A stretch of DNA of 64,000 bases from a virus (lineage: Duplodnaviria > Heunggongvirae > Uroviricota > Caudoviricetes): the IMG/VR virus record IMGVR_UViG_2513237251_000009, one strand, 5' to 3'. The notes beneath the pieces are model-generated. The model saw only the letters and a list, made by a program, of their open reading frames with translations, made no database searches and had not been told where the DNA came from. Position numbers and translations under genes: made by a program. Shown here one piece after another: positions 31,540 through 48,799 of this stretch (the first letter of the stretch is position 1; each line of letters opens with the position of its first letter).

Positions 31540-31852
31540 CGAATTTCTCCCGTGTACAGGAACAGAGTTAAAAAGCCGGAACCGGAATCAAATCACAGGA
31601 TGACCATCTGCCAGTGGCTGGTCGTAAAAAAAAGCCGCGCCATGCGCAGCCGGAAATAAAGGGATAACGATGATAGTTTGAGAAAAACAGAAACAACACT
31701 TTTGTGGCAAAGCATGGTGCCGGGTGCCTCCCGGTGAATTCAGTATCAGCACCTGAATCCGCGATTATCCCATATACCTGGTTGCTGATCGCCCCTCCGC
31801 ACAGGGGGATTCACCATGCAGAAGTGTTTTTAATAAACAGCAAACAAAAAAA

Positions 31853-32617: not shown

Positions 32618-32694
32618 TGGCGCGTTGTAGTGGAGTCGAACCACTGACCGATTGCTTAGAAGGCAATTGCTCTGTCCGGCTGAGCTAACAACGC
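32618..32694 (-). tRNA. argO: tRNA-Arg (anticodon TCT)
   Basis: 77 nt, 7-bp acceptor stem GCGTTGT/ACAACGC, anticodon loop CTTCTAA, T-arm GGTTCGACTCC, encoded CCA; terminator hairpin downstream. Confidence 0.85.
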
Positions 32695-32794
32695 AGAATA
32701 CCGATAATGGACCGCCATCGGGGACCCGGCCCCGCACCAACAACCCTGTTATGGTGTCGTCTGCTCTTCCTGATAAGCTAATGGCGGTTTGTGA

Positions 32795-32870
32795 TGGTGG
32801 CCCTTGCTGGATTTGAACCAGCGACCTGGCGATTATGAGTCGCTCGCTCTCACCACTGAGCTAAAGGGCC
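32795..32870 (-). tRNA. ileZ: tRNA with CAT anticodon (Ile2-lysidine type or Met)
   Basis: 76 nt, acceptor GGCCCTT/AAGGGCC, anticodon loop CTCATAA, T-arm GGTTCAAATCC, encoded CCA. Confidence 0.8.
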
Positions 32871-37013: not shown

Positions 37014-37169
37014 TTACTTCTCAGATTCGTAGTCTACGAAGACAGCGACCTCCGTCTGACCGGTTCGGATTCGCACCTCGCAGAGGTCTTTCCTCGTTAC
37101 CAGTGCCGTCACTATGACGGTTAAACAGATGACGATCAGGGCGATTAACATCGCCTTTTGCTGCTTCAT
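37014..37169 (-). CDS. hokD: Hok/Gef-family type I toxin (HokD/RelF-like)
   Basis: 51 aa MKQQKAMLIALIVICLTVIVTALVTRKDLCEVRIRTGQTEVAVF... nearly identical to K-12 HokD as recalled. Confidence 0.85.
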   Translation of the reverse strand: MKQQKAMLIALIVICLTVIVTALVTRKDLCEVRIRTGQTEVAVFVDYESEK

Positions 37170-37459
37170 AGCCTGCTTCTCCTTGCCTTTCGGCACGTAA
37201 GAGGCTAACCTACATGTGTTCAGCATGGATTGAGCCTCAGATTAATGTTAAGCGTCTTGCAGGACGCGTAATGTTAACTGGGGCTTTTCTCTATCTGCCG
37301 TTGGTGTTCATGCCCGAGGCAGATAGCCTCAAGCACCCGCAGCAATTCTACTTAACTATCCTTTTCCCGCAAACCGTTTTTATCCCCAGCGGCAAATCGA
37401 ATACACCACCAGCGCCACCGCCATCGCAATTCCTACCGTTGTGAATGCTTCAGGCCAGG

Positions 37460-41522: not shown

Positions 41523-41948
41523 TCAATGCACGACAACAGCATTACCAGGCTGACCCCCACTGTTAGTCAGGGTGCCCCAGGCGATCGCCGCTGCGACAAA
41601 ATCATCCACATCTTTCACCAGCCGATCCCTCCGTTCGACGATCTCACGGTAATATTCAGAGCTGTGACTGCGCATACGGGCCACCAGCAGAGGCGGCATT
41701 GCCTTTTCGATCGCCGGTAACAGAGCCTGCATTTTTTCAACTGCATCAGGGGTGTCTTTCTCTATCCAGCGGAAAATTTTCTGGGTATTGCGAGCCAGGG
41801 CTTCCGGATGGCTGTCGTCGTACAGTTCAGGAAACGTCATACCCAACTCAAAATAAGCCTGGGTTATTCCAGCTGCCGGAACTTTTTCGCCATCAGGACG
41901 CGCCCAGGCATTCATCGCCATGCGGATGTGTTCATGCTTGATTTTCAT
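41523..41948 (-). CDS. YdaT-like protein (CII-position regulator)
   Basis: 141 aa from ATG 41948 (MKIKHEHI...), SD aagggggg; position between cro and O. Confidence 0.5.
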   Translation of the reverse strand: MKIKHEHIRMAMNAWARPDGEKVPAAGITQAYFELGMTFPELYDDSHPEALARNTQKIFRWIEKDTPDAVEKMQALLPAIEKAMPPLLVARMRSHSSEYYREIVERRDRLVKDVDDFVAAAIAWGTLTNSGGQPGNAVVVH

Positions 41949-42174
41949 GAATCCCCCCTTGGTTAGAAGGCGGATTATGATCAGAATCGGGAATGACAAC
42001 CGTCGGTATGTGTAACTCATATTTGAGCGCCCCGGCAGTGACTGCCTGAATTAGCAACGCCCATTTCCACGGAACGTCTTCCCCCCACATGCTGACTGTG
42101 GTTTTTGACGTTCCTAGAGCGGCGGCTGTTTTAACAACTCCGCCAAAATAGCCTAATACTTCTGATTTTTTCAT
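41932..42174 (-). CDS. cro: Cro-like HTH repressor (YdaS-like)
   Basis: 80 aa from ATG 42174 (SD ggag); HTH; divergent from cI. Confidence 0.6.
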   Translation of the reverse strand: MKKSEVLGYFGGVVKTAAALGTSKTTVSMWGEDVPWKWALLIQAVTAGALKYELHIPTVVIPDSDHNPPSNQGGIHENQA

Positions 42175-42265
42175 GAGTCGCTCCATAAAACTGAACGCCA
42201 AAAGTTTAATAATCAAAACCAAAGAAAGTCAAGAAACAAAACCATCTGTGTTTTAAAATCAAAAC

Positions 42266-42904
42266 ATGAACAAGCAAACAATATCTGAACGCATAACCCA
42301 ACGTATGCATGCGCTAAACTTGAAAGGCAAAGACCTTGTCAATGCCACTGGCGCATCAAAAGGCTCCGTAAGTCAATGGATGAACGGTGGAGGAGCGCCG
42401 TCCTCGCGTTACATAAGTTCACTGGCAAAGATATTGAAAGTAAACGAAAATTGGCTTCTTAATGGAGGAGAGTTAAATACAGGTGATTCGCTTGATCTAT
42501 CTTTACCGCCGATAAAAACGGTTCCGCTACTATCACTTCAGCAGGCAGCAAGCTGGAGTGATTATATGAAAAATTCCTCAATAACCTCTTGTGTGCAGCT
42601 TGTCGGAGAAATCCCGGCCAATACCTTTGCTGTTGTTCTAGAGAGTGACAGTATGTCGACATCTGGTGGTGGAGTTTCCATCCCAAATGGTTCAACAGTT
42701 TTTGTTGATCCCGATCGAATCGTACAACCAGGAAATATTGTCCTTGCCTTACCCAAAGGGACCACAACGCCTGTCATTCGCAAACTGGAGATAGAAGGGC
42801 CGGATATTCTTTTAGTCCCCACGAATCCTCGCTACCCTTCAATTATGCTGGATGATCTATCTTGCATATTGGGAGTATGCTTTAAAATTCAACAAGATAT
42901 TTAA
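42266..42904 (+). CDS. cI: CI-type prophage repressor (HTH plus S24 LexA-like peptidase domain)
   Basis: 212 aa; N-terminal HTH, C-terminal Ser (ESDSM) and Lys (LPKG) of S24 autoprotease fold. Confidence 0.8.
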   Translation: MNKQTISERITQRMHALNLKGKDLVNATGASKGSVSQWMNGGGAPSSRYISSLAKILKVNENWLLNGGELNTGDSLDLSLPPIKTVPLLSLQQAASWSDYMKNSSITSCVQLVGEIPANTFAVVLESDSMSTSGGGVSIPNGSTVFVDPDRIVQPGNIVLALPKGTTTPVIRKLEIEGPDILLVPTNPRYPSIMLDDLSCILGVCFKIQQDI

Positions 42905-43196
42905 CCAACCTCATCTATTTGATTAACTGTATGCCATCGTAGTGATGGCGTAACAGCTGCCTGCTTAAAATGTTTTGATAAAAAAACATTGACCTTAAAT
43001 GTTCGTTTTTCTAAACTTCATTCATTCCCTCACCCCGCCCCACAGAATGCAGGGCAATACTTCGAGTTACCAGGCAGTGGTCAGGGGTTAAGTAGCCAGC
43101 CCGAGGCGTAAGAACATGACGGCAGGGTTCAACTTTAATAACTATGCAGCAGGTTTTTGTTCCGCTACCCCGGCGTTAAGGGGAAATGAGGTCAAC

Positions 43197-43349
43197 ATGG
43201 ATACGCTCAATCTTGGCAACAACGAATCTCTGGTATGTGGCGTGTTCCCCAACCAGGACGGTACGTTCACCGCGATGACGTATACCAAAAGCAAAACGTT
43301 TAAAACTGAAGCTGGCGCGCGTCGCTGGTTAGCCAGAAACACTGACTGA
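43197..43349 (+). CDS. Hypothetical 50-aa protein (possibly YdfA-like)
   Basis: ATG 43197 with SD gagg; MDTLNLGNNESLV...; first gene of cI-adjacent cassette. Confidence 0.4.
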   Translation: MDTLNLGNNESLVCGVFPNQDGTFTAMTYTKSKTFKTEAGARRWLARNTD

Positions 43350-43360
43350 TGAGGTTGACG

Positions 43361-43999
43361 ATGGAATTTAAAGATTTACCTCCTTCAATCCAGGAGATTG
43401 CAGCACACACACTTCGTCATCGTCTGAACGAACTTGAATTGGAATCGGTAACGAAAAAAGACACTGATAATATGGCTCGTAATGTGCGCGATGCGTTTAC
43501 CGGATTGTATTTCTGTGCGTCTATAAATAAACACGACTCAGAGAGTGTGGCAAATAAAATTGCAGAAACGACAGCGCAAAACATCAATACGAAACCAACG
43601 GAAGAAGAAATTGATCAGTTTGCTCATGATGCTGGTTTAAAAAACAAGAAAGAAAAATCGCCATATGCGGGGAACATGTTTGTTTATGACAATCTCATCA
43701 GAATTCGTGGCGAAATTCCGGCGGAATACCTGGCAAGAGTCCATCAGGCATTGCTTAAAAATTTGGAAACAGAATTATTTGATGGCAACACTAACGGTTT
43801 CTTCATGGTATCAGGCCTTGAGAAAGACTGGGATGCAGAAAAACGCTGGAATGTTGCTACATGGTTATTCAGTAACAGAGCCGCTGCACTGGAAGCTTCG
43901 GCATGTATTTGCGGCCTGTTCTTAACAGACCACAAATATAATCTGGATGTGTACAGTTATATTTACGCTGAACACGGTCCACTCTGGATTGACTGGTAA
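43361..43999 (+). CDS. Hypothetical 212-aa protein in the cI-adjacent lysogen-expressed slot
   Basis: ATG 43361 with SD gagg 6 nt upstream; no recognisable motif by eye. Confidence 0.5.
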   Translation: MEFKDLPPSIQEIAAHTLRHRLNELELESVTKKDTDNMARNVRDAFTGLYFCASINKHDSESVANKIAETTAQNINTKPTEEEIDQFAHDAGLKNKKEKSPYAGNMFVYDNLIRIRGEIPAEYLARVHQALLKNLETELFDGNTNGFFMVSGLEKDWDAEKRWNVATWLFSNRAAALEASACICGLFLTDHKYNLDVYSYIYAEHGPLWIDW

Positions 44000-44209
44000 T
44001 TATAAGGAAACACCAGCAGGGCCGCGGCGACCAACAGAACGATTAAAATCAATAATGCCATTATAAAGGACATTATTTAATTTATCGTCGAATGCTGATT
44101 CTGTGAGCCTCAACTCTGAATGAGTTTTTAATAACCCTGATTGCCTGAGTTGATTTACCAGGCATTCAATCTGTTTTTCAATAAGCGGATTTCTTTTTTT
44201 GTTTGGCAT
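44000..44209 (-). CDS. Hypothetical 69-aa protein convergent with the 212-aa gene
   Basis: ATG 44209 preceded by GGAGG; stop codons of the two genes abut (TAATTA). Confidence 0.4.
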   Translation of the reverse strand: MPNKKRNPLIEKQIECLVNQLRQSGLLKTHSELRLTESAFDDKLNNVLYNGIIDFNRSVGRRGPAGVSL

Positions 44210-44546
44210 TTTATCCTCCATTGAGGTTCTGGGTTAAAAATGGAGACCAACACGCTGTCACGTGTGGTCGTGCGCCGGACACGGATAAGAATCCGGTACT
44301 GACAGTTTACTGAAAGGATATTTCCCTGAAAAGTCAGTGCATAACGCGAAAGCGTACGGCGAAGCTCTTTCCCTTAGAAGGCTTGTCGTTAGATTTCTTC
44401 GAACGTGCGCTTCCGGTTGTGGCACTCCGCGAAATGGCGCGGCGGTAAGTATGGCGGGGTTATTCCTTCCCCATTGAGGACACCGGGTTGTCAGGTTGAC
44501 CATACGCTTAAGTGACAACCCCGCTGCAACGCCCTCTGTTATCAAT

Positions 44547-44604
44547 TTTCTGGTGACGTTTGGCGGTATCAGTTTTACTCCGTGGCTGCTCTGCCGCCCT
44601 TTTT
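44547..44604 (+). ncRNA. dicF: DicF small RNA
   Basis: tttctggtgacgtttggcggtatcagttttactccgtggctgctctgccgcccttttt matches K-12 DicF as recalled, one substitution; ends in an intrinsic terminator. Confidence 0.75.
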
Positions 44605-44773
44605 AAAGTGAATTTTGTGATGCGGTGAATGCGGCTAAGCGCACGCGGAACAGTTAAAACCAAAAACAGTGTTATGGGTGGATTCTCTGTATCCGGCGTT
44701 AATTGTTAACTGGTTAACGTCACCTGGAGGCACCAGGCACTGCATCACAAAATTCATTGTTGAGGACGCGATA

Positions 44774-44962
44774 ATGGAAACGTTATTACCAAACGTTAAT
44801 ACGTCTGAAGGTTGTTTTGATATTGGTGTTCTGCTCAGTAACCGGGAGTTTACTGAAGATGCCATTAACATGAGGAAATATGAGCCTTATCTGCTCAATG
44901 ATAATTCCATACTTTCCCGAATTGCTCTTCTTGAACTTGGTATTTTCGGAGAACGTCAATGA
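44774..44962 (+). CDS. dicB: DicB-like cell-division inhibitor
   Basis: 62 aa from ATG 44774 (METLLPNVNTSEGCF...), SD gagga; directly downstream of dicF. Confidence 0.7.
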   Translation: METLLPNVNTSEGCFDIGVLLSNREFTEDAINMRKYEPYLLNDNSILSRIALLELGIFGERQ

Positions 44963-45147
44963 CTTCAGCATTTGCACTGATGATGACGGTTTTTCTTATA
45001 ACGGGTGAATCACAGAATGTGATTACCGGAATTTATGCCAGTAAAGAATCCTGCCTCCAGGCAAGAGACGAGCAAAAAATTTCTGGTGAATGCCTCCCGG
45101 TAAAAAAAGTATCGCTGTACCTGAATAACGAAACACCGGCTGGATAA
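44959..45147 (+). CDS. ydfD: YdfD-like small membrane/lysis protein
   Basis: 62 aa MTSAFALMMTVFLITGE..., resembles K-12 YdfD; 4-nt overlap with dicB. Confidence 0.65.
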   Translation: MTSAFALMMTVFLITGESQNVITGIYASKESCLQARDEQKISGECLPVKKVSLYLNNETPAG

Positions 45148-45239
45148 CCCTCCAGCCATATTAACACCATACCAACGGATTAAAAATGCCAGCAATGGCA
45201 GGGATTTGTTCACCCTTAAATCTGTAATGAGGTTTATCA

Positions 45240-46484
45240 ATGAGCACTGATAAAGAAGAATTTGCGCTATATTGCGAAGCAAAAAATGACAAAGTCAGAA
45301 AACGTCTGGGAATTAAAGGTGGTTTTTACTGGACTACAGCAAAAAAATTATCTGTTGCCATCTCCCGCTGCATTACCGCAATGGATGACAACGATTATGA
45401 TGAAGACGACTTTAAAAAACCCGTTCGCGTCCATTTACCCGTTGTGAATGACCTTCCACCTGAAGGCGTGTTTGATACCGAATTCTGCAACCGATACGAA
45501 AAAGGCGGGGAAGATGGCATTACAATGGTATTTATCGCGCCCTCTCCCTCCGTGCAGGAGAAACCAGCCAGTACTGACAATACCAACGTCAACGGCGAAG
45601 ACATGACGGAGATTGAGGAGAATATGCTCCTGCCGGTTTCTGGTCAGGAGCTGCCCATTCGCTGGCTTGCGCAACACGGCAGCGAAAAACCAGTAACGCA
45701 CGTTGCACGGGAAGAACTTCAGGCATTACATATAGCACGGGCGGAAGAACTGCCGGCTGTTACTGCCTTGGCCATTTCTCACAAAACAAAGCTGCTCGAC
45801 CCGCTGGAGATTCGCGACCTTCACAAACTGGTACGCGACACTGACAAAGTTTTCCCTAATCCCGGTAATTCAGACCTGGGACTGATAACTGCTTTTTTCG
45901 AGGCATACCTGGACGCTGACTACACTGATCGGGGTCTGCTGACAAAAGAGTGGATGAAAGGAAATCGTGTTTCGCGTATCACCCGTACGGCTTCCGGTGC
46001 AAATGCCGGTGGCGGGAACAAAACCGATCGCAATCCGAATTTAGTACACACCTTCGATACGCTGGATGTGGAGATTGCAGCAGCCACACTTCCGATGGAT
46101 TTTAATATTTATGAAATTCCGGGCAGCGTTTATCGTCGCGCAAAAGAAATCGTCCTGAAAAGAGAAAGTCCGTTCAAAGAATGGTCCGCAGCACTTCGCG
46201 CAACCCCGGGTATTCTGGACTATTCCCGCGCCGCTATTTTTGCACTTATCCGGAGCGCTCACCCTGAGTTTTATCACTACCCGGGACGCCTTCAGGGGTA
46301 TATCAACGCCTACTTAACGGAGACTGATCACGAGAACCCCAGCAAGGAAACTCTCACTGCTGCACGACATACACCGGAAAAAGATATCCTGGAAGAAGTT
46401 AACCGCGAACTGTCTGCTAAGCAGGAAACAGAAGAAGAAAATGATGAAGAAAAACCGCAACCATCTTGCGCAATGGCAGAATGA
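45240..46484 (+). CDS. Hypothetical 414-aa protein (YdfE-like position)
   Basis: Large ORF between ydfD and integrase fragment; acidic C-terminal tail; unknown function. Confidence 0.45.
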   Translation: MSTDKEEFALYCEAKNDKVRKRLGIKGGFYWTTAKKLSVAISRCITAMDDNDYDEDDFKKPVRVHLPVVNDLPPEGVFDTEFCNRYEKGGEDGITMVFIAPSPSVQEKPASTDNTNVNGEDMTEIEENMLLPVSGQELPIRWLAQHGSEKPVTHVAREELQALHIARAEELPAVTALAISHKTKLLDPLEIRDLHKLVRDTDKVFPNPGNSDLGLITAFFEAYLDADYTDRGLLTKEWMKGNRVSRITRTASGANAGGGNKTDRNPNLVHTFDTLDVEIAAATLPMDFNIYEIPGSVYRRAKEIVLKRESPFKEWSAALRATPGILDYSRAAIFALIRSAHPEFYHYPGRLQGYINAYLTETDHENPSKETLTAARHTPEKDILEEVNRELSAKQETEEENDEEKPQPSCAMAE

Positions 46485-47017
46485 TAATCAGAAGAAATCT
46501 GGCAAAAGACCGTTTTACAGTACCAAAAACACAGGCGGGAACCAATCGTGTGATTCACCTTATTAAGCCCGCAATCGACGCTCTCCGGAGTCAGATGGCA
46601 CTAACGAGACTGAGCAAAGAGCATATCATCGATGTTCACCTCAGAGAATTCGGCAGAACAGAGAAACAAAAATGTACCTTTGTTTTTCAACCTGAAGTGT
46701 CAGCGAAAGTAAAAAATTATGGCGACCATTTTACCGTTGACTCAATAAGGCAGATGTGGGACGCAGCGGTAAAGCGTGCCGGAATCCGCCATCGCAAATC
46801 GTATCAGTCGAGACACACTTATGCCTGCTGGTCGTTAACAGCAGGAGCTAACCCGGCATTCATTGCAAACCAGATGGGCCATGCAGATGCGCAAATGGTG
46901 TTTCAGGTGTACGGGAAATGGATGTCAGAAAATAATAATGCGCAGGTAACGCTGTTAAATACACAGTTAAGCGAGTTTGCCCCAACCATGCCCCATAACG
47001 AAGCGATGAAAAGTTAA
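46466..47017 (+). pseudogene. int: Tyrosine integrase, C-terminal catalytic fragment only
   Basis: 183 aa with catalytic-domain pattern (RHTYACW...HADAQMVFQVYGKW); N-terminal about 200 aa absent, overlapped by upstream ORF. Confidence 0.65.
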
Positions 47018-47054
47018 TTTTTTATTTATCAATTAGTTAGATTGAATGACTCTT

Positions 47055-47337
47055 GAAATCCATAATTCATAGATGTTTTTTACTATTCTGTGGGTTTTTG
47101 GGTGTTTTCTAAGTTTTTTCAGATGGTTGTATTTTTTCTAAAAATCCCTAATCTCGATTTTGCTGTTTATTTGAGGCCTTTTTATGTCCCATATATGCCC
47201 CACAGATACCCCGCAGCCAAAATCAACAAAATGCCAAAAGGTTCTGTTCCTGCCCTGCAACAAGAAATGCTGCGACGTGTCAGTAAACGTTATGACGATG
47301 TAGAAGTGATCATCAAATCCACCAGCAACGATGGCCT
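47055..47337. repeat. Direct repeat copy 2, first part (continues 48651..48765 after IS629)
   Basis: Matches 1276..1558; junction between prophage A int end and prophage B. Confidence 0.7.
47231..47337 (+). pseudogene. ydfK: Second ydfK copy interrupted by IS629 (3-prime part at 48651..48750)
   Basis: Same sequence as 1452..1558 then IS629 left end. Confidence 0.6.
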
Positions 47338-47379
47338 TGAACCGCCCCGGTTTTCCTGGAGAGTGTTTTATCTGTGAAC

Positions 47380-48270
47380 TCAGGCTGCCAGATCATCGTT
47401 TCCGATGGAAGCATAATAAGCTTTTTCTGCTTCTGCCGGAGGAGTATGGCCCAGCCTTCCCAGCAATCGTCGATTGTTATACCAGTCCACCCACGTTAGT
47501 GTGGCCAGTTCCACTTCTGCACGGTTTTTCCAGCTCTTACGGTGTATTACCTCCGCTTTGTAAAGACCATTGATGCTCTCAGCCATCGCGTTGTCATACG
47601 AGTCGCCTGTACTCCCTGTTGATGCCAGTAATCCGGCTTCTTTTAGTCGCTCCGTATAGGCCAGTGACACATACTGAGAGCCTTTATCGCTGTGATGGAT
47701 GGTGCCAGACGGACGACGGGCCCACAACGCCTGCTCCAGCGCATCCAGCACGAATGTCGTTTCCATAGACGATGAGACCCGCCACCCCACGATGTATCCG
47801 GCAAACACATCAATGATAAACGCCACATAGACGAAGCCCTGCCATGTGCTGACGTAAGTAAAATCAGCCACCCACAGCTGGTCAGGTCGTTCTGCCACGA
47901 ACTGACGGTTTACGCGGTCGCCTGCGGCAACGGCTTTCCGGCTGATGGTCGTACGGACCTTTTTACCCCGGAGAACACCGGCAAGTCCCATAACCGCCAT
48001 GAGACGTGCCACTGTACATCTGGCCACCCTGATTCCTTCCCGTAACAACTGACGCCAGACTTTACGCACACCGTACACCTGATGATTTTCATCGTATACG
48101 CGCTGTATCTCTCTCTTCAGCCAGTCGTCGTGCTGCGCACGGGCACTGCGTTTATCCGGATGATGTCGCTGTTGCTGACAATGGTAATACGTTGACGGGG
48201 CAATATGCAGTTCGCTGCATACCGGTCCGACCCCGTACTGCTCACGCAGCTTATCCAGCAGTGGCATCAT
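47380..48270 (-). CDS. IS629 transposase OrfB (DDE integrase domain)
   Basis: 296-aa IS3-family orfB. Confidence 0.85.
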
Positions 48271-48593
48271 TTTTTCCAGAGGCGGTCGAACTCCGCCTTC
48301 GCAAAATAAGCGGAAGCCTGGCGAAGGATATCGTTACTGCGGCGCAGTTCACGATTTTCACGTTCCAGCTCTTTCAGACGCTGACGTTCAGCGCTGGTGA
48401 GCCCACCATCACCGCCCCCGGTATCCCGCTCATGCTGGCGAACCCAGACACGCAGAGTCTCCGGCGTACAGCCAATCTTTGGGGCAATGGAACAAATTGC
48501 CGCCCACTGTGAGTCATATTCATCCTGACTTTCCAGAACCATACGAATCGCCCGCTGACGGACTTCGGGGGAAAAACGAGTATTTTTAGTCAT
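48267..48593 (-). CDS. IS629 OrfA (HTH)
   Basis: 108-aa IS3-family orfA, overlaps orfB. Confidence 0.85.
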
Positions 48594-48799
48594 CCTGTTT
48601 ACCTCTTTCTCAGGGAGTTTAGTCTCCAGGATTTCCGGGGCGGTTCACCTTTCAGTTACTCGCACCGCCGATAAAGATTCTGCAAAAACTTTTGTTCAGG
48701 AGACGCTGAAAGATACCTGGGAGTCTGCTGACGAGTGGTTTGTTCGCTAATTAACGAGTAAAATCGACCCTGTACACGATTCTGTGTAAATGCCTTTTC

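Follow-up and report, generated by a model that had tools for sequence, protein, structure and literature searches.

A probable CI-controlled early-left operon carrying dicF and dicB in a defective Qin/Rac-like prophage of O157:H7-type Escherichia coli

Introduction

Which regulator governs a dicF-dicB division-inhibitor module in a prophage that has neither DicA nor DicC? In Qin, a prophage found in E. coli K-12, dicF and dicB belong to an operon that begins with ydfABC and is under DicA/DicC control. Primer extension and Northern blots in K-12 gave no internal promoter, and DicF derives from the dicBp polycistron (PMC10448788). A module of this kind is present in IMG/VR virus record IMGVR_UViG_2513237251_000009, of which a stretch of 64,000 nucleotides, here called the window, was analysed. 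The initial annotation of this DNA noted the apparent absence of the genes that control the K-12 operon and suggested that control of the module may have been rewired. We conclude, with a probability of roughly 0.85, that the locus lies in a defective Qin/Rac-like lambdoid prophage of O157:H7-type E. coli and is its pL-equivalent early-left operon, controlled by a CI-type repressor.

The dicF-dicB block and its surroundings

The block and the remnants that follow it comprise these features:

44269-44546, + strand: untranslated, structured leader of the dicF precursor, by homology to the K-12 ydfC-dicF spacer
44547-44599, + strand: DicF sRNA, 53 nt, with a terminator T-run to 44604, by Rfam and K-12 alignment
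44774-44962, + strand: dicB, 62 aa (Pfam DicB, E 6e-37)
44959-45147, + strand: ydfD-like gene, DUF1482, 62 aa (Pfam DUF1482, E 3e-15)
45240-46484, + strand: RecE-like (exonuclease VIII) N-terminal remnant (Pfam Exonuc_VIII, E 2e-34)
46466-47017, + strand: tyrosine integrase C-terminal fragment (Pfam Phage_integrase, E 5e-9)

The Rfam DicF family (RF00039) matches 44548-44599 on the + strand over the full model (positions 1-52), with a score of 75 bits (gathering score 48), and 52 of 53 DicF nucleotides are identical in the alignment with K-12 Qin. A terminator-like hairpin at 44582-44597, followed by the T-run, is the predicted rho-independent terminator of DicF. The sole difference from K-12 is a G at 44585, nucleotide 39 of DicF, where K-12 has A. 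This position is unpaired in the predicted DicF-ftsZ duplex, the energy of which is unchanged at -38.5 kcal/mol, and altered pairing with ftsZ, considered as a consequence of the substitution, is thus not predicted. The local 3' hairpin is predicted to be stronger with G, moving from -1.2 to -8.4 kcal/mol. The G allele is a common one, found in 19 of the 68 DicF copies sampled.

DicF lies between a conserved leader and dicB, collinear with K-12. Homology to K-12 extends over 44269-44878 at 93% identity, from 60 nt past the ydfC stop codon, through dicF and into dicB, and the final ~150 nt of the leader before dicF are nearly 100% identical. Leader and DicF together (44269-44604) are predicted to fold at -122 kcal/mol, with a z-score of -3.2 relative to shuffled sequences. 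The leader and dicF adjoin dicB in 81 of the 83 dicB loci retrieved, the other two having less than 100 nt upstream of dicB. In K-12, the leader region is the source of a 190-nt species, made by RNase III, and of the 53-nt DicF, made by RNase E (PMC10448788; PMC9438474), and by analogy DicF in the window would be processed in the same way.

The dicB product matches Pfam DicB (PF05358) over residues 1-62 of 62, at 125.5 bits against a cutoff of 27, and NCBIfam DicB (NF049927) at 114.2 bits against a cutoff of 100. A tblastn search of the whole 64-kb window with K-12 Qin proteins found DicB (67% identity over 55 aa), YdfD (45%), YdfA (88%) and HokD (92%), and gave no match for DicA, DicC, YdfB, YdfC, Rem or RelBE. 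DicB is therefore a divergent allele, in which the C-terminal third differs; its family membership suggests that it would inhibit division in a MinC/ZipA-dependent manner. The ydfD-like product has a DUF1482 match of 56 bits against a cutoff of 25 and an N-terminal hydrophobic segment, and its gene is translationally coupled to dicB, the two overlapping by 4 nt exactly as in K-12, where the record labels ydfD "lysis protein".

The RecE-like remnant is the downstream continuation of the operon and has been joined by a deletion to the integrase fragment region. In the identical DNA of O157:H7 strain TR01 it is annotated as an incomplete RecE pseudogene, and intact phages carry an exonuclease of ~820 aa at this position. 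The interval 46472-47069 is 91% identical to the 3' end of K-12 intQ, and the integrase fragment is likewise a pseudogene in TR01. With truncated recE standing beside an integrase reduced to a fragment homologous to the 3' part of intQ, the prophage is defective.

Much of the initial annotation is borne out by these matches: a DicF sequence at 44547-44604, one substitution from K-12 and ending in a terminator, a 62-aa DicB-like ORF, a YdfD-like ORF, and the absence of dicA and dicC. Its claim that ydfABC are missing is correct for ydfB and ydfC and wrong for ydfA, a homologue of which lies at 43197-43349. Its reading of 44222-44546 as a region from which control genes have been lost does not survive the alignment with K-12 that it had called for. 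Nothing is missing there, because the stretch is the conserved dicF precursor leader (44269-44546), and its K-12 counterpart is likewise without ORFs.

Repressor, with putative operators and promoter

Upstream of the operon, the window has an immunity region and a promoter with the following parts:

41932-42174, - strand: 80-aa Cro-like gene, oriented divergently to the repressor gene (Pfam P22_Cro, E 1.7e-15)
42204-42265, no strand: OR-like region in the cro-cI spacer, motif GTTTwwwwATCAAAAC
42266-42904, + strand: CI-like repressor, 212 aa, HTH_3 and Peptidase_S24 (Pfam, phrog_4, 3bdn_A)
42972-42987, no strand: OL-like operator with the OR motif in inverted orientation (- strand GTTTTTTTATCAAAAC)
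42989-43017, + strand: putative pL/dicBp-equivalent σ70-like promoter, TTGACC-17-TAAACT, by promoter scan
43031-43196, + strand: conserved 5' leader of the operon, by alignment across loci

The CI-like protein combines Pfam Peptidase_S24 (E 8e-13) and HTH_3 (E 2e-4) domains, is covered by phrog_4 "transcriptional repressor" over residues 2-211, and aligns over its full length with the λ repressor (3bdn_A, E 5e-10). Its HTH is a distant homologue of DicA (37% over 65 aa, tblastn), and the NCBIfam DicA subfamily reaches E 1e-10, below its cutoff. The Cro-like gene is labelled "Cro/CI family transcriptional regulator" in the identical TR01 record, and beyond it on the - strand come a YdaT-like gene in the cII position and O-like and P genes. 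The CI-like/Cro-like pair stands at the place that DicA and DicC occupy in Qin.

The serine (ESDSM) and lysine (IRKL) of the CI-like repressor align with λ GNSM/FKKL and LexA GMSM/VKRL, giving it the Ser-Lys catalytic dyad of λ CI/LexA-type repressors. The aligned scissile site reads QQA-ASW, which is Ala-Ala and neither Ala-Gly nor Cys-Gly; a 257-aa repressor found at other loci has the canonical QA-GYW. The P1' glycine is highly conserved in LexA and UmuD, and RecA-stimulated cleavage of the CI-like repressor is for this reason uncertain. PGAP calls only the C-terminal 112 aa of the gene on identical DNA. A truncated gene was considered and rejected, as the DNA is the same and λ CI can be aligned with the whole of the 212-aa ORF, from one end to the other. 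The shortened call is probably explained by the start of the full ORF, which has no Shine-Dalgarno sequence and an operator-like site abutting its ATG, and the cI mRNA is probably leaderless, like that of λ cI made from PRM.

The OR-like region has exact 16-bp sites at 42204-42219 and 42250-42265 and a weaker middle site, recognised by eye, at 42227-42242, with 23-bp spacing. A pR-like promoter on the - strand (TTGACT at 42232-42227, 18 nt, TAAACT at 42208-42203) overlaps the first of these sites. The OL-like site ends 1 bp ahead of the -35 element of the pL-like promoter. It therefore lies upstream of -35 and off the promoter core, and a second site over the -10 element is weak (11/16 by eye). 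A position weight matrix scan of the 64 kb returned three strong sites of 22-23 bits, with the next best at 12.9, a separation that is partly circular because the motif was built from the same sites. A pattern for the DicA operator, which as a positive control finds both sites at K-12 dicBp, finds nothing in the window even when one mismatch is allowed. The initial annotation had held that a DicA-like repressor gene or operator just upstream would tell against rewired control; a DicA-type operator was not found, and a homologous repressor with putative operators of its own occupies the expected position.

The promoter scan found 42989-43017 as the sole + strand promoter-like site between cI and dicB, and none from 43017 to 45300; nor was any + strand terminator-like site found between the pL-like promoter and the terminator of DicF itself. 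The 5' leader that follows is common to loci with seven different immunity modules, and DicA-type loci share only its last ~38 nt. At loci with seven unrelated repressors, each has its own promoter-like end, and homology to the window starts at ~43031, just past the -10 element. This breakpoint recurs in complete genomes, and DicA-type loci join at ~43159. The junction is evidence for the predicted promoter that is independent of the operator motif scan, and we infer that the promoter at 42989-43017 and the 16-bp operators are the functional ones.

A variable cassette before the leader

Between the 5' leader and the dicF precursor leader lie three genes:

43197-43349, + strand: ydfA homologue, DUF1391, 50 aa, opening the operon as in K-12 (Pfam, E 1e-29)
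43361-43999, + strand: 212-aa gene in the variable slot, an ORF with a conserved N-terminal ~55 aa (MEFKDLP...)
44000-44209, - strand: convergent 69-aa gene with a strong Shine-Dalgarno sequence (GGAGG), from the ORF list (phrog_4274, E 1e-51)

The ydfA homologue encodes a protein 88% identical to K-12 YdfA, and the DNA is also 88% identical over 43159-43340. The slot that holds ydfB and ydfC in K-12 is occupied in the window by the 212-aa gene and the convergent 69-aa gene. The initial annotation had named the 69-aa gene and the CI region as replacements for the missing genes; both exist, and the account overlooked the 212-aa gene in the same slot. Because the 212-aa and 69-aa genes meet stop codon to stop codon, with no terminator-like site found in between, their transcripts are bound to collide or overlap. 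The single - strand candidate for a promoter of the 69-aa gene (44237-44208) was discarded since it would start transcription past the ATG, and inspection of 44210-44420 by eye gave nothing convincing.

The slot from ydfA to the leader is a cassette site, which may be empty, hold ydfB and ydfC, or hold a + strand MEFKDLP... gene. The N-terminal ~55 aa of the 212-aa protein are common to at least six other proteins with unrelated C-termini, and the C-terminus of MEFKDLP... genes takes at least seven forms, six of which carry their own convergent small gene of 69, 92, 64/68, 66, 61/65 or 77 aa. Homology blocks break within the N-terminal coding region and at 44204-44207, exactly at the start of the small gene, with the consequence that three small-gene types have the Shine-Dalgarno sequence and the initial residues (MEDKM) in common. 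The 212-aa and 69-aa genes always occur together and are found behind four repressor types. Codons 3-5 of the 69-aa gene contain an A7 tract, which is one base shorter in 4 of 15 loci and thereby shifts the reading frame.

Profile and family libraries gave no named match for the 212-aa and 69-aa proteins, and an AF2 model of moderate confidence had no informative fold match. The layout resembles that of polymorphic effector/immunity or exclusion modules, and one might tentatively regard 43361-44268 as an undescribed polymorphic two-gene system of the early-left operon of Qin/Rac-like prophages, although we consider this doubtful. A functional pairing of the two genes is only a hypothesis, since linkage alone also explains their co-variation. 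Because its genes are convergent and lie just before the dicF leader, the cassette could tune read-through into dicF-dicB.

Occurrence of the arrangement

Many O157:H7 and O121 chromosomes carry the interval 42900-45240 of the window at 100% identity, and their annotation there reads LexA family, DUF1391, two hypotheticals, dicB and DUF1482. The block formed by CI, pL and ydfA is present with at least 80% coverage in 1037 of 5426 complete E. coli genomes (19%). A scan of IMG/VR with the DicB allele of the window gave 80 viral loci, 76 of them at 100% over all 62 aa, and across these 80 loci the same leader-dicF-dicB block stands behind repressors of at least eight types. They include several DicA-type alleles (135-152 aa), the 212-aa CI of the window, the 257-aa and a 214-aa HTH+S24 protein, the Tritos-type CI139 with its 139-aa relatives, 132-aa and 133-aa HTH proteins, and a PaaR2-like repressor followed by a TA pair. 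A peptide-pattern scan of genome contigs for DicB, with patterns that are allele-specific, found only two E. albertii loci.

Immunity cassettes have thus been exchanged as modules at a fixed junction. This is routine heteroimmune cassette mosaicism, already published for O157:H7 prophages (PMC5069750, PMC8630535): in strains Sakai and EDL933, dicBF is present in multiple copies, located in CP-933O/M/P and flanked by different sequences (PMC5069750), and dicB lies 3' of cI/paaR2 in O157 prophages (PMC8630535). Four dicF copies are reported for EHEC (PMC7873438).

Discussion

What becomes of the proposal that control of the module has been rewired? DicA and DicC are gone and a CI-type repressor is in their place, so the controlling repressor almost certainly differs from that of Qin, but the operon keeps its architecture, in the order repressor, pL-type promoter, ydfA, variable slot, dicF leader, dicF, dicB, ydfD. 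The observation behind the proposal is thus partly confirmed and the proposal itself partly supported, being right in no more than a trivial sense: a repressor that differs from DicA but is homologous to it stands in DicA's place.

The identity and order of the parts, the homology of the leader to K-12 and the absence of DicA and DicC are observed directly; promoter, operators and read-through are predictions from the sequence. On the reading that we prefer, the CI-like repressor probably binds the 16-bp operators in the cI-cro spacer and beside the σ70 promoter at 42989-43017, and would keep this pL-equivalent promoter off. Derepression would yield one polycistronic RNA that contains the leader, ydfA, the 212-aa gene and the antisense of the 69-aa gene, and that continues through the dicF leader (44269-44546), dicF, dicB, ydfD and the recE remnant. 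Read-through from the pL-like promoter as far as dicF is expected from the scans described above. Part of transcription would terminate at dicF, RNase III and RNase E would free DicF from the polycistron, DicF would then repress ftsZ and other mRNAs, and DicB with MinC would block Z-ring formation. The convergent 69-aa gene and the ~775 nt of untranslated RNA before dicB could cut read-through by interference or through Rho, and the Ala-Ala sequence aligned with the cleavage site makes the inducing signal uncertain.

Three other explanations are less likely than CI control of a pL-equivalent operon. True rewiring would mean that dicF-dicB is driven by its own promoter in or just upstream of 44210-44546, uncoupled from the repressor. 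The 60 nt at 44210-44268 have no homology to K-12, and an older study, cited at second hand from PMC10448788, proposed a promoter upstream of dicB. However, those 60 nt hold the Shine-Dalgarno sequence and start of the - strand gene and are common to loci with other convergent genes, the adjoining 44269-44773 matches K-12 at 93-100% identity and the search for a promoter within the K-12 operon gave none (PMC10448788), and the scan of 43017-45300 gave no + strand promoter-like site, which together make such a promoter very unlikely.

Alternatively, the module could be insulated or attenuated by a barrier, the convergent 69-aa gene or Rho on the long untranslated RNA blocking most read-through from pL, such that the slot cassette and not the repressor sets DicF/DicB output. 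The stop-to-stop arrangement of the two cassette genes, which lack an intervening terminator, the ~775 nt from the last translated codon to dicB, and a slot content that varies widely among loci with an otherwise identical dicF-dicB block are all in keeping with such a barrier. We nevertheless think it unlikely, in view of the want of a convincing promoter for the 69-aa gene, the co-occurrence of the cassette with an intact, perfectly conserved dicF-dicB in many loci, and the precedent of K-12, in which dicBp still gives rise to DicF and DicB although 568 nt ahead of dicB are untranslated (PMC10448788). Control in trans, by the DicA of another prophage in the same genome, is suggested by the several dicBF loci of O157:H7 genomes, some of them with DicA/DicC (PMC6915034), but is highly improbable here: the DicA operator pattern that occurs twice at K-12 dicBp is absent from the window at one mismatch, and the promoter region upstream of 43031 is immunity-specific.

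Compared with the K-12 Qin dicBF operon, the CI-controlled operon of the window has the same gene order and orientation and the same conserved dicF leader, and the two prophages also share a downstream recE-like remnant, an intQ-like integrase fragment and a hok/sok locus on the far side of the replication genes. It departs from the Qin type in its control and in its ydfABC region. The repressor is a 212-aa HTH+S24 protein of CI type in the window and the 135-aa DicA in Qin, the Cro position is taken by a P22_Cro-type protein and by DicC, respectively, the promoter and operators differ, and the Rem antirepressor is missing from the window. The 5' leader of the operon is ~170 nt long, whereas that of Qin is ~60 nt, the 212-aa and convergent 69-aa genes correspond in position to ydfB and ydfC, and the C-terminus of DicB and YdfD have diverged.

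The O157:H7 prophage CP-933P/Sp12 (paaR2-paaA2-parE2/ydaS-ydaT; PMC8630535) is also Qin/Rac-like with a non-DicA repressor at the cI/dicA position, and like the window it carries dicB downstream and has YdaT in the place of cII. The leader, ydfA, dicF and dicB of the window are shared by loci of the CP-933P/Sp12 type, but PaaR2 is without a peptidase domain and has a TA pair after it, whereas the repressor of the window has an S24 domain and no TA pair. The temperate coliphages vB_EcoS-689R5, Tritos, mEp460_ev081 and PPompW carry the same dicF-dicB operon. It is paired with a 214-aa HTH+S24 repressor in vB_EcoS-689R5, DicF is annotated in Tritos, and PPompW has DicA/DicC together with a comparable cassette, a + strand gene plus convergent small gene, before the leader. 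Unlike the defective prophage of the window, these phages are complete, with intact exonuclease, xis and int, and their S24 repressors are 27-34% identical to that of the window. The pL operon of phage λ offers the more distant parallel of a CI-type S24 repressor, a tripartite-looking OR with ~23-bp spacing, a cI mRNA that in the window too is probably leaderless, and a host division inhibitor in the early-left operon. That inhibitor is Kil in λ but DicF and DicB in the window, no N/nut system was recognised in the window, and the cleavage site is Ala-Gly in λ CI and Ala-Ala in the CI of the window.

Lambdoid mosaicism of this form is common and has been both annotated and published. With identical annotated chromosomes, documented components and documented shuffling, the locus matters little as a discovery. 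It does offer two testable points: whether the Ala-Ala CI can be cleaved in the SOS response, and what effect the variable cassette has on dicF-dicB output. In EHEC, copies of dicF and dicB stand behind different repressors, of the DicA, PaaR2 and CI/S24 types, and may therefore respond to different signals. Such differences would bear on what triggers DicF-dependent virulence regulation and DicB-mediated phage exclusion in these pathogens.

Immunity region and operon leader

The CI-like repressor lies at the position of DicA in K-12 Qin, upstream of the operon 5' leader, as follows.

42266-42904, + strand: CI-like repressor gene, 212 aa, HTH and Peptidase_S24
43031-43196: operon 5' leader, ~166 nt, upstream of ydfA

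On identical DNA the PGAP call covers only the C-terminal 112 aa of this repressor (from 42566). No SD precedes the full 212-aa ORF, and an operator adjoins its ATG, which suggests that the CI-like mRNA would be leaderless, as for λ cI. The S24 Ser/Lys dyad is present in the repressor, but residues ~92-96 (QQA-ASW) place Ala-Ala at the site that corresponds to the Ala-Gly scissile bond of λ CI and LexA. In a related repressor of 214 aa, from the temperate coliphage vB_EcoS-689R5, this position is Ala-Ile, whereas the 257-aa repressor type retains the canonical Ala-Gly. The leader itself is conserved behind seven unrelated immunity modules in different loci, and contains a CCCC-GGCGTTAA-GGGG hairpin directly ahead of the ydfA SD. 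Some loci with an identical dicF-dicB block encode a short repressor, then an 81-aa and 124-aa ParD/ParE-like pair, and then ydfA (for example, IMG/VR locus L023, 2269-3195), an order that agrees with the published CP-933P paaR2-paaA2-parE2 arrangement.

A polymorphic cassette upstream of the dicF leader

The interval between ydfA and the dicF precursor leader (window 43361-44268) is a polymorphic cassette, and the same slot is found in other fetched loci, including L009, L030 and L010.

43361-43999, + strand: 212-aa cassette gene
44000-44209, - strand: convergent 69-aa gene
44188-44194, - strand: A7 tract, codons 3-5 of the 69-aa gene
L003, 3529-4147: same slot
L023, 3651-5497: same slot, with an IS inserted within it

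The first ~55 aa encoded by the + strand gene (MEFKDLP...) are conserved and the C-termini take at least seven alternative forms, six of which each have a convergent small gene of their own. The breakpoints of recombination fall within the N-terminal coding sequence and at the start codon of the small gene. Family and fold comparison of the cassette proteins returned no known match. The A7 homopolymer is one base shorter, frameshifting the 69-aa gene, in four of the 15 loci with the 212+69-aa cassette (L033, L065, L071 and L083); slippage, phase variation and sequencing error are all possible causes.

Prophage context and the DicB allele

The same prophage carries further RNA features, and the annotated O157:H7 chromosome TR01 lacks the IS3-family insertion.

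31676-31848: STnc100 sRNA
32621-32870: two tRNA genes
37017-37338: hok/sok locus (HokD 92% identical to K-12)
47339-48647: IS3-family element, ~1.3 kb, orfA/orfB

This element, with an ALIL frameshift pseudoknot at 48196-48312, splits a DinI-like gene (ORF 47090-47377) just past the prophage end. Near the locus, the sole differences from TR01 are several small indels and substitutions at 46425-46559, clustered where the recE remnant meets the integrase fragment.

The window DicB (44774-44962) is 67% identical to K-12 DicB over 55 aa, diverging mainly in the C-terminal third, yet 76 IMG/VR contigs carry this allele with 100% identity. DicB thus exists in at least two distinct, conserved types.
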